From: Candidatus Uhrbacteria bacterium
GTDB lineage: Bacteria > Patescibacteriota > Patescibacteriia > JACPHY01
Direction of reading: 5' to 3'
DNA: 64,000 bases
Assembly (NCBI GenBank): GCA_016188355.1
Contig: JACPHY010000011.1
Location: 23,219 to 87,218 of the forward strand
Shown: piece by piece, positions 49,183-50,295 of the stretch
How the letters are laid out: each line of letters begins with the position of its first letter
Numbering within the stretch: the stretch's first letter is position 1
Position numbers and translations under genes: made by a program
Notes under the pieces: generated by a model
What the model was told of the DNA's origin: nothing
Databases searched by the model: none
What the model saw: the letters and a program-made list of their open reading frames with translations, nothing else

Positions 49183-50295
49183 ATGCAACGGTTATCGAAA
49201 CAGCCGACGTCGGTGGTGCTGCAGCCCAAGCAGATTCTCCTTCCGCATTATTTACGGGAAGGGGACGGTGAGCATATGGTCTGTTTGGCATGGTCCAATG
49301 TAGGGACGCATGTGGTGGTGGGTTCTGGCTCCGTCATCTCGTCCTGGCGGAGCGATGGGATACTCTGTGGGCGATTGTCCATGCCGAGCAATACCAATGG
49401 ATGGAATGTTGTGTGTATTGGGGAAACGCAGATACTCTTGCAATGCAGTATCGATTGCGGGAGCTTCGAGAGTTCGGTGACGAAGTGGCTTGCGCCCATG
49501 CATTTGCAGCAGATGGAGCGCCTTGGACGGCCGCGCAGGGTTGGGGACATAGGTGTTTGCGTGTCCGTTGCCCCGAATCAGGAATGGGTTGCTCTGGAGA
49601 CCGTGCCGCTACGGCAGTCGAACGTTTCGGGCTGGCCGGTATGGTGGACACTCTATTCCATCATCAATCGTCGACCGATGTTCCAGATGTCGATATCCAA
49701 TCGGTCCATGCTGCACTCTTGGGAGCCGCAGAGCCGTTGGTGTGCTCTGGCCAGCAAAGAGGCATCAACGGTTTTTCTCGTCGCTCCATTGCATGATGGA
49801 GGGAGAGAAGAGGAGGTGCAATGTGGCCATCTGGTGGAGGATATGGCGGTGTCGCTAGACGGTCAGCGGCTTGCGGTGGTGTGCGAGCGCGGGCATTGCT
49901 GGGCGTATCGGGTGTCGATGGATGGAACCGGCGCATTTGATGTTGCGTTGGATCGGCCGATGCGGAGCCTTAGGGTGCGTATGATGGAGTCCGTGTTCCT
50001 TCGCTGGACCCCGGATGACCGACTCATTTGCGTACTGGAACGAGAGCCGAGCATCGTGTTGACGGACGTGTGGGGAGGCTCGAGGCCGCGGGTGGTCGCG
50101 AAGGTGCGAGGTCCTGCGGAAATGCGGTTGCTGAGCGTATCTCCTGATGCGCAACGGATGCTCGTGGTGGGCAGGATATCCAAGTCACTGTTCGGCCAGA
50201 ACGTTGTTGAGCGCTTACCTGTTGTGCTCGATTTTGGCGCACCGCACTTCGATCTCGCCCCCCGGGAAAATTGGGCGGACGCCTCGTTCGGGTGA
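49183..50295 (+). CDS. WD40-like beta-propeller paralog 1; C-terminus ...LDFGAPHFDLAPRENWADASFG
   Basis: Repeated WD-like blades (..VVGSGSVISSW.., ..WTPDDRLICV..). Shares the invariant C-terminal motif with six downstream paralogs. Confidence 0.7.
   Translation: MQRLSKQPTSVVLQPKQILLPHYLREGDGEHMVCLAWSNVGTHVVVGSGSVISSWRSDGILCGRLSMPSNTNGWNVVCIGETQILLQCSIDCGSFESSVTKWLAPMHLQQMERLGRPRRVGDIGVCVSVAPNQEWVALETVPLRQSNVSGWPVWWTLYSIINRRPMFQMSISNRSMLHSWEPQSRWCALASKEASTVFLVAPLHDGGREEEVQCGHLVEDMAVSLDGQRLAVVCERGHCWAYRVSMDGTGAFDVALDRPMRSLRVRMMESVFLRWTPDDRLICVLEREPSIVLTDVWGGSRPRVVAKVRGPAEMRLLSVSPDAQRMLVVGRISKSLFGQNVVERLPVVLDFGAPHFDLAPRENWADASFG

Follow-up and report, generated by a model that had tools for sequence, protein, structure and literature searches.

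Several well-described systems rely on short peptides at the extreme C-terminus of a protein. In eukaryotes, the paralogous seven-bladed WD40 propellers Cdc20 and Cdh1 dock onto the anaphase-promoting complex/cyclosome (APC/C) through a C-terminal Ile-Arg 'IR tail' that engages its TPR subunits. AAA+ machines read C-terminal tags, such as the ...LAA end of ssrA in the case of ClpX and non-polar C-termini in the case of FtsH, with proteolysis as the outcome, while the tail of SSB (DDDIPF-COOH) and the HbYX tails of proteasomal ATPases dock into pockets on their partners. Here we describe seven paralogous WD40-like propeller proteins (P1 to P7) that all end in the peptide W(A/S)DASFG-COOH, and whose genes lie beside those of an AAA+ ATPase and a radical SAM protein in a 64-kb stretch of DNA (hereafter the window, meaning the whole stretch analysed). 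The window is part of a 106.5-kb contig from a metagenome-assembled genome of Candidatus Uhrbacteria, a member of the candidate phyla radiation (CPR), with locus tags HYV74_035xx. We infer that the shared peptide is a trans-acting recognition signal, that is, a short linear motif on a flexible tail that would be read by one common partner, most likely the AAA+ ATPase of the same predicted operon, a reading that we hold to be evenly balanced between right and wrong.

As with Cdc20 and Cdh1, variable propeller faces would serve different substrates, while a very short peptide at the extreme C-terminus would attach all of them to one machine, although for P1 to P7 this role is a proposal, and the two cases differ in that Cdc20 and Cdh1 are eukaryotic, their tail is a dipeptide, their sequences are unrelated to the present ones and the gene island around the propellers yielded no TPR protein. 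The ssrA and FtsH tags resemble the present case in offering a few exposed C-terminal residues and their carboxylate to an AAA+ ring with aromatic pore loops (here a WVG pore loop, Walker A and arginine fingers are retained), whereas no protease domain or partner protease was found here, and the tag is encoded in the genome on seven stable-looking paralogs instead of being added to failed products. With the SSB and HbYX tails it has in common a disordered tail with acidic and small residues and an aromatic residue near the free carboxylate, yet its sequence is a different one, it is carried by what would be the client or adaptor and not by the ATPase, and the window showed no genes for a 20S proteasome. 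Moreover, the S-F-G end departs from the HbYX consensus (hydrophobic-Tyr-X), having a polar residue at the Hb position and Phe in place of Tyr, on a carrier that is not an ATPase. All three of these comparisons (the APC/C tail, the ClpX and FtsH tags, and the SSB and HbYX tails) are functional analogies and not homologies.

A further comparison concerns the FtsH-type ternary conflict systems, which combine vWA, MoxR and FtsH-like AAA+ proteins and in some cases also include beta-propellers or an effector of the radical SAM type (Kaur et al. 2020, PMC7159879); there, the radical SAM enzyme has been proposed to modify a separately encoded peptide (PMC7159879). The parts list of the island is reminiscent of these systems, with an FtsH/CDC48-like AAA+ protein, a divergent vWA-like protein, a radical SAM protein, beta-propellers and a Ser/Thr kinase. 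However, no MoxR-type (AAA_3) protein occurs among the island open reading frames (ORFs), the vWA-like protein has no Pfam match, and the genes for the kinase, the vWA-like protein and a pyruvate-kinase-barrel-like (PK-like) protein form a separate transcription unit that is also present in a huge phage lacking propellers. Consequently, because the defining MoxR-vWA pair is absent, we do not place the island in this class.

The conserved peptide and the proteins that carry it

A six-frame motif scan finds W[AS]DASFG followed by a stop codon exactly seven times in the window, always on the plus strand, and a degenerate DNA pattern for the tail likewise gives seven matches where 100 shuffles give an expectation of 0 (coordinates of all features are collected in Table 1). 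The seven end positions and the four nucleotide strings that a preliminary description of this DNA had given for the tails are exact. That description had presented the conserved tail as HW(A/S)DASFG, of which the heptapeptide holds in all seven copies and the leading histidine in only five, being replaced by asparagine in P1 and by cysteine in P3. The sole amino-acid replacement within the heptapeptide is the A/S exchange at its second position. As had also been noted, all three stop codons are in use (TGA in four copies, TAG in two and TAA in one), and the DNA downstream of the seven stops shows no conservation in register. The possibility that the seven 3' ends are artefacts of assembly, or of the collapse of a single copy, is ruled out, since the paralogs are only 19-45% identical to one another (the closest pair, P2/P4, at 45%) and since three independent Logan assemblies from different sequencing runs reproduce the arrangements P1-AAA-P2 and P5-P6-P7-TrxR at 99.98-100% identity. 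Sequencing runs from the source site include SRR12113385, SRR12113419 and SRR12113422.

Substitutions were counted by the Nei-Gojobori method over all 21 pairs of the seven paralogs, and omega was obtained after Jukes-Cantor correction. Over the last seven codons pS is 0.469 and pN 0.029 (pN/pS 0.06), as compared with a pS of 0.72 and a pN of 0.37 for codons -24 to -8, and with 0.687 and 0.588, values that are saturated, for the rest of the genes; omega is accordingly about 0.04 in the tail and about 0.6 (saturated) elsewhere. The suggestion that the same amino acids are kept by different codons is borne out, given that five of the six degenerate tail codons vary synonymously (GAC/GAT, GCC/GCA/GCG, TCG/TCA, TTC/TTT, GGG/GGA), and that P1, P6 and P7 each have two to four synonymous differences from the other copies within seven codons while the peptide is unchanged. 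With a tail omega far from 1, third positions that are not identical, and gene bodies that are saturated and 19-45% identical, the codon comparison confirms strong purifying selection on the tail peptide. The earlier view that purifying selection acts here in place of DNA homogenisation is therefore upheld as regards the peptide, but not as regards homogenisation, some of which adds to the signal, as discussed below.

The carriers are proteins of 333-378 aa, which the models described here identify as seven-bladed WD40-like propellers. P2 scores above the Pfam cut-off for ANAPC4_WD40 (27.5 bits, cut-off 22.9), as does P4 for both WD40 (30.9 bits, cut-off 27) and ANAPC4_WD40 (29.8), whereas P1, P3, P5, P6 and P7 have weaker propeller scores that fall below the cut-offs. 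An AlphaFold2 (AF2) model of P2, built from the alignment of the seven paralogs, is all-beta and seven-bladed with four-strand units (predicted template-modelling score, pTM, 0.69), although its mean predicted local distance difference test (pLDDT) score is only 64 and its middle blades are poorly modelled. In Foldseek searches this model matches G-beta, WDR61, RACK1 and a bacterial WD40 protein at probability 1.0 and TM scores of 0.5-0.6.

A second conserved C-terminal motif, (L/F)DFGxP, in which D, F, G and P are invariant across the seven-paralog alignment, precedes the tail, with its proline 16-19 residues from the C-terminal end. In the P2 model the corresponding IFDFG forms a beta-strand at residues 331-335 (mean pLDDT 90 over residues 331-340), and the motif presumably represents the closing strand of the last blade, ended by the proline. 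Between that proline and the residue preceding the tail tryptophan lies a linker of 8-11 residues, rich in Pro, Gly and Ser, whose length and sequence differ from copy to copy, and the last ten residues of the P2 model are undocked with pLDDT below 50. Outside the two C-terminal motifs the alignment contains only seven invariant columns (P, L, W, W, C, D, P). An invariant peptide in predicted disorder, flanked by variable sequence and held by purifying selection, has the features expected of a short linear motif.

We find no other protein that combines this tail with a propeller, whether among 1.84 billion representative proteins or in GTDB genomes, JGI metagenomes and IMG/VR. When a hidden Markov model of the seven paralogs was run against the representative proteins, only the seven paralogs themselves aligned end to end among the 150 matches listed, the remaining 143 being giant multi-WD40 proteins, which could mask weak single-propeller relatives. 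An indexed search of 5.8 billion clusters returned only the window's own proteins and generic WD40 proteins without the tail, and the clusters (90% identity, 15 billion sequences) that contain the seven paralogs and the ATPase hold no other distinct sequence, the second member of the P7 cluster being the same gene with an earlier start. The degenerate tail pattern matches 32 stretches in GTDB species genomes, 37 in JGI metagenome contigs and 3 in IMG/VR, and we estimate that a pattern of 35 bits should produce about 35 matches per ~600 Gb by chance. Given that the number found is close to this chance number, and that none of the matches has a DFG motif followed by the tail and a stop, they provide no indication of relatives; they were rejected as homologs, since every one was noise in the wrong frame or else came from unrelated actinobacterial proteins that contain LWADASFGW internally. 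A profile built on the C-terminal 60 residues gave no matches and missed even the window's own proteins, and hence is uninformative, while no phage homolog of the propellers was found in a phage collection. P1 to P7 are an orphan, lineage-specific expansion of WD40 propellers with a common C-terminal tag, a known design principle whose mechanism here is not demonstrably new.

The tail as a proposed docking signal and competing explanations

In the arrangement that we propose, the last propeller strand, (L/F)DFGxP, would be ended by its proline, and the linker beyond it would tether the heptapeptide, a role suggested by its variable length and sequence and its content of P, G and S. The heptapeptide, with W and F as aromatic anchors, a single Asp and a free Gly carboxylate, would then be presented to a single common receptor. 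This reader is probably one other protein, since seven invariant columns are too few to form a conserved tail-binding pocket on the propellers. The best candidate is the AAA+ ATPase, which lies in the middle of the operon and belongs to the classic AAA+ proteins, whose rings typically grip exposed termini with aromatic pore loops or N-terminal domains. Its N-terminal region or its WVG pore loop would hold the tail, so that a single ATPase could act on any of the seven propellers by docking, remodelling or unfolding it, with their divergent faces left to bind different targets. The outcome might be docking, with the propellers acting as substrate adaptors, or remodelling and disassembly, or unfolding for export.

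The ATPase belongs to the classic clade, and its best NCBIfam models are CDC48, FtsH and PAN, all of them far below cut-off. Walker A (GPPGVGKS) lies at residue 647, the WVG pore loop at 678 and RAGRTD at 761, and both the Walker B Asp-Glu (WFRDEVD, aligned to IDEIE) and the arginines of RxGRxD are retained. No protease domain was detected with Pfam or NCBIfam and, by analogy with characterised AAA+ proteins, this set of motifs would fit an unfoldase or remodeller that starts from exposed termini. The FtsH-type proteins of the ternary conflict systems have an inactive AAA domain at the N-terminal side and an active one at the C-terminal side. In the present ATPase the C-terminal AAA domain is clear, a degenerate AAA domain in the N-terminal part is a resemblance seen by eye only (hmmsearch E 0.055, score -0.9), and a two-domain AAA architecture lacks statistical support. 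No orthologs of the ATPase were found; one match of similar size was dropped as unrelated, its contig carrying chromo-domain genes.

If the tail is a docking tag, the locus would represent a compact bacterial case of a design known mainly from eukaryotes, in which diversified WD40 receptors serve one ATP-driven machine, and an operon of 12 kb is a large investment for a reduced CPR genome. Furthermore, a defined peptide (HWADASFG-COOH) and a small number of candidate readers make the proposal testable in vitro without cultivation of the organism.

Several points weigh against the docking proposal. The 590-residue N-terminal region of the ATPase matches nothing and has no recognisable peptide-binding domain, and the role of reader could fall just as well to the radical SAM protein or to the products of two small genes at the start of the operon, orf182 and orf75. 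The tail's low pLDDT derives from an alignment of seven sequences and is compatible with intramolecular docking. So far the family is known from one uncultivated population, which leaves no co-evolution or phyletic co-occurrence to compare. Finally, codons are identical in 0.60 of same-residue tail pairs as against 0.39 expected from the codon usage of the family (simulation, P = 0.0017), an excess which, along with the converted appearance of the P2 and P4 3' ends, argues for some component of the conservation at the level of DNA.

Of the alternatives, the one that survives best, although we judge it unlikely, is that the tail is a substrate of the NrdG/PflA-like radical SAM protein, which would abstract a hydrogen from the terminal glycine or another tail residue and so generate a radical, a cross-link or a processed end, for example by amidation. 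The gene lies in the same predicted operon, directly before P1 and two genes upstream of the AAA+ gene. Its product carries the cluster motif GCSICCPGC and matches Fer4_12 together with the NrdG, PflA and YjjW models, which assigns it to the glycyl-radical activase lineage, yet it reaches only 72.4 bits on the NrdG model TIGR02491 (cut-off 126.1) and falls far below cut-off on the other activase models. As in the pairs PFL/PflA and NrdD/NrdG, an activase-lineage gene is co-transcribed (by prediction) with proteins that have an invariant glycine near or at the C-terminus, and neither NrdD (tblastn, best E 0.22) nor any other glycyl-radical enzyme was found within the 64-kb window. However, in P1 to P7 the glycine is the last residue and does not sit in a finger loop, and the proteins, at 333-378 aa, are propellers and not the 10-stranded beta/alpha barrels of 80-100 kDa typical of glycyl-radical enzymes. 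The fingerprint of the C-terminal glycyl radical domain, RVxG[FWY]x6-8[FL]x4Qx2[IV]x2R (PMC13450708), has no strict match among the 14 island proteins or in any of the six reading frames of the window; loosened to R[IVTLC]xG[FWY], the pattern still finds nothing among those 14 proteins. The glycyl radical on the tail glycine that the preliminary description had entertained consequently receives no support from either fingerprint or fold. Moreover, the radical SAM protein is without RiPP-type (ribosomally synthesised and post-translationally modified peptide) recognition or SPASM domains, its relatives in phages either adjoin NrdD (locus L077) or are near-canonical NrdG (locus L076, 118 bits), and an NrdD elsewhere in the genome, beyond the window, would make it an ordinary NrdG.

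A functional link between the radical SAM gene and the propellers is nonetheless possible, in view of their predicted co-transcription and of the lack of NrdD within the window. In its most specific form, which we regard as a long shot, the enzyme would abstract the C-alpha hydrogen of the C-terminal glycine, giving a radical on a scaffold other than a glycyl-radical enzyme or an oxygen-independent C-terminal processing (e.g. loss of Gly to leave an SF-amide), with the AAA+ ATPase presenting or recycling the propellers. Were the radical SAM protein to act on the tail, the glycyl-radical activase family would gain a substrate class and a chemistry that are new to it.

It is also doubtful, and we think somewhat more so, that the tail is an intramolecular latch, with W and F packing onto the propeller of the same chain as a plug of the central channel or a closure latch and with conservation serving folding. 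Aromatic residues commonly latch propellers, the upstream (L/F)DFGxP is clearly structural, being modelled as a confident strand, and a prediction from seven sequences could miss a docked tail. Against this, AF2 leaves the last ten residues undocked at low confidence, a linker varying in length and sequence would be unusual for a fixed intramolecular contact, and no conserved pocket is apparent on bodies of such low mutual identity and so few invariant columns.

More improbable is a role as an export or targeting signal, in which the propellers would be effectors and the AAA+ ATPase would unfold or escort them, in the manner of the C-terminal signals of type VII or type IV secretion. CPR bacteria are known for a life attached to hosts, the translations of P1 to P7 show no evident N-terminal signal peptide, the C-terminus is invariant and exposed, and the adjacent ATPase has a translocating pore loop. 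No secretion-system component, however, was detected with Pfam or NCBIfam in the operon or its flanks, the sole trace being a pilin-like N_methyl motif in one downstream gene. This is a small ORF downstream of trxB (61084-61446, minus strand) whose N_methyl match (Pfam, E 0.0036) is below the cut-off.

There is very little probability that the conservation is purely a matter of DNA or RNA, produced by short-tract conversion among tandem paralogs or by a nucleotide signal overlapping the last codons. The excess of identical tail codons given above would fit such an origin, and P2 to P5 have GAT GCA TCG TTT GG in common. Furthermore, where P2 and P4 have the same residue, they use identical codons at 22 of 26 positions within the last ~42 codons, compared with 62 of 122 in the rest of the two genes (Fisher P = 0.001), a pattern suggestive of a conversion tract shared by their 3' ends. 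However, P1, P6 and P7 keep the peptide despite their synonymous differences, pN/pS in the tail is low, three different stop codons are used and the DNA beyond them is not conserved in register. An RNA element found between the genes of the operon (see below) does not account for the signal either, as it begins downstream of the stop, which leaves the tail codons outside it, and is absent after P2, P4, P6 and P7 (a partial match precedes P7). The codon comparisons therefore largely refute DNA-level homogenisation as the sole cause, and indicate that occasional short-tract conversion between neighbours, or a constraint on nucleotides or codons, is superimposed on selection for the peptide and is insufficient alone.

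It is barely credible that the tail glycine serves as a point of ligation to targets, in the way of ubiquitin- or Pup-like modifiers, which are small beta-grasp or disordered proteins ending in GG (or GGQ/E) with an E1-like or PafA-like ligase nearby. A ligatable or ubiquitin-like C-terminal glycine was among the earlier conjectures; in its favour, the terminal Gly is invariant, and orf75, from the same operon, ends in RVRGGT. However, the carriers are 350-aa propellers and not beta-grasp proteins, the tail ends in FG and not in GG, no E1/ThiF, E2, JAB or PafA-type/Pup-ligase domain occurs among the island proteins (Pfam, NCBIfam and profile scans), and the low-confidence model of orf75 shows half a beta-grasp at best. 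The peroxisomal targeting signal PTS1 has the C-terminal consensus [SAC]-[KRH]-[LM] and is read by the TPR domain of Pex5; S-F-G lies outside this consensus and the organism is bacterial, so that the PTS1-like signal once considered for the tail can be set aside.

Predicted operon structure and the surrounding window

On the plus strand, the island runs in the order infB, DnaJ-Ser/Thr kinase, vWA-like gene, PK-like gene, terminator, propeller operon, terminator and trxB. We predict an operon of ~12.3 kb comprising orf182, orf75, the radical SAM gene, P1, the AAA+ ATPase gene and P2 to P7, on the grounds that strong terminators occur only at 47525 and 60011 and bracket these genes. The first of the two terminators also separates the upstream three-gene module from the propeller operon, and the second is a hairpin with a T-run that begins 8 nt after the P7 stop. 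No family match was obtained for orf182 in family and profile scans. The product of orf75, likewise without a family match, ends in KRVRGGT, and its single-sequence AF2 model, of low confidence, has a beta-beta-alpha arrangement over residues 3-43 followed by disorder. The end of orf75 recalls the RGG end of ubiquitin-like proteins.

Table 1 Positions of the predicted propeller operon, its conserved elements and the genes upstream of it (numbering of the window)
Feature	Position	Strand	Details and basis
DnaJ-Ser/Thr kinase	43936-45240	+	domain scans
vWA-like protein	45253-46317	+	phrog_2971 match; no Pfam match; DxTGS motif by eye only
Pyruvate-kinase-barrel-like (PK-like) protein	46310-47512	+	domain scans
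Strong terminator-like hairpin after PK-like gene	47525-47549	+	10 pairs, 8 GC
orf182, first gene of predicted operon	47659-48207	+	gene call in independent assembly
orf75	48204-48431	+	75 aa; overlaps orf182 and radical SAM gene by 4 nt each
NrdG/PflA-like radical SAM protein	48428-49042	+	204 aa; CX3CX2C; Pfam Fer4_12 2e-26
P1, WD40-like propeller paralog	49183-50295	+	370 aa; ends NWADASFG; ORF, weak propeller Pfam matches, MBI2483217.1
(L/F)DFGxP motif, P1	50227-50244	+	alignment
Tail codons W-A-D-A-S-F-G and stop, P1	50272-50295	+	motif scan, DNA pattern
Two-hairpin element before AAA+ gene	50332-50398	+	conserved copies
AAA+ ATPase, classic clade	50436-53174	+	912 aa; Pfam AAA 1.4e-18
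Two-hairpin element before P2	53187-53253	+	conserved copies
P2, WD40 propeller paralog	53262-54329	+	355 aa; ends HWADASFG; Pfam, AF2 model, Foldseek
Putative conversion tract, P2/P4	54147-54329 vs 56364-56546	+	excess of identical codons
(L/F)DFGxP motif, P2	54261-54278	+	alignment
Tail codons and stop, P2	54306-54329	+	motif scan, DNA pattern
P3, WD40-like paralog	54361-55398	+	345 aa; GTG start; ends CWADASFG; ORF, Pfam WD40 26.8 bits
(L/F)DFGxP motif, P3	55330-55347	+	alignment
Tail codons and stop, P3	55375-55398	+	motif scan, DNA pattern
Two-hairpin element before P4	55407-55472	+	conserved copies
P4, WD40 paralog	55506-56546	+	346 aa; ends HWSDASFG; ORF, Pfam
(L/F)DFGxP motif, P4	56478-56495	+	alignment
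Tail codons and stop, P4	56523-56546	+	motif scan, DNA pattern
P5, WD40-like paralog	56652-57710	+	352 aa; ends HWADASFG; ORF
(L/F)DFGxP motif, P5	57642-57659	+	alignment
Tail codons and stop, P5	57687-57710	+	motif scan, DNA pattern
Two-hairpin element before P6	57719-57784	+	conserved copies
P6, WD40-like paralog	57817-58818	+	333 aa; ends HWSDASFG; ORF
(L/F)DFGxP motif, P6	58750-58767	+	alignment
Tail codons and stop, P6	58795-58818	+	motif scan, DNA pattern
Two-hairpin element, partial copy before P7	58857-58878	+	partial match
P7, WD40-like paralog	58867-60003	+	374-378 aa; ends HWADASFG; ORF
(L/F)DFGxP motif, P7	59944-59961	+	alignment
Tail codons and stop, P7	59980-60003	+	motif scan, DNA pattern
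Terminator-like hairpin and T-run, operon end	60011-60037	+	11 pairs, 8 GC; 8 nt after P7 stop

The same two-hairpin leader stands before the AAA+ gene, P2, P4 and P6, which we count in favour of a shared operon. It is an intercistronic element of ~65 nt whose first hairpin is GTCCCATC-YYCG-GATGGGAC and whose second has a stem of ~17 bp, the 3' arm ending in a Shine-Dalgarno-like GGGAGGA, and among the four copies three pairs show compensatory changes. No Rfam family corresponds to it and no copies occur elsewhere in the window. The element may be a processing or translational control site and may thereby set the relative amounts in which the operon products are made.

On a crude codon-usage score, for which housekeeping genes of the window served as the training set, the radical SAM gene and most of the propeller genes (48422-60003) fall far below their neighbours, and the GC content of this interval is not unusual (0.57-0.67). 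Foreign origin, low expression or fast evolution could each lower such a score.

A radical SAM gene also stands next to an AAA+ gene on the viral contig IMGVR_UViG_3300018493_003783 (locus L076, positions 10007-12246): the first encodes a near-canonical NrdG (118 bits) and the second, directly after it, a classic-clade AAA+ ATPase of 536 aa. The family of this viral ATPase is widespread in phages, including mycobacteriophage Catdawg (gp97), Aeromonas phage HJ05 and Streptococcus satellite phage Javan368. The adjacency was considered as a conserved pair and dropped, given that the viral radical SAM protein is near-canonical NrdG and that Javan368 has no radical SAM gene directly upstream of its AAA homolog, and the pairing on the viral contig may be incidental.

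Upstream of the operon, the genes for the kinase, the vWA-like protein and the PK-like protein (43936-47512) are syntenic with positions 18932-21895 of LR745208.1, a 485-kb uncultured huge phage, and the vWA-like protein is 40% identical to its counterpart there over 99% of its length. At the LR745208.1 locus the three-gene module has neither propeller genes nor an AAA+ or NrdG-like gene beside it. The vWA-like protein additionally matches hypothetical proteins of ~154-kb mycobacteriophages (LinStu, Catera and others). The three genes look like a phage-derived module. Further upstream, the interval 31500-35400, in which no Rfam family was found, is gene-poor according to a crude gene caller, and contains only a GIY-YIG-like ORF of 98 aa (32040-32336) and a few short ORFs.

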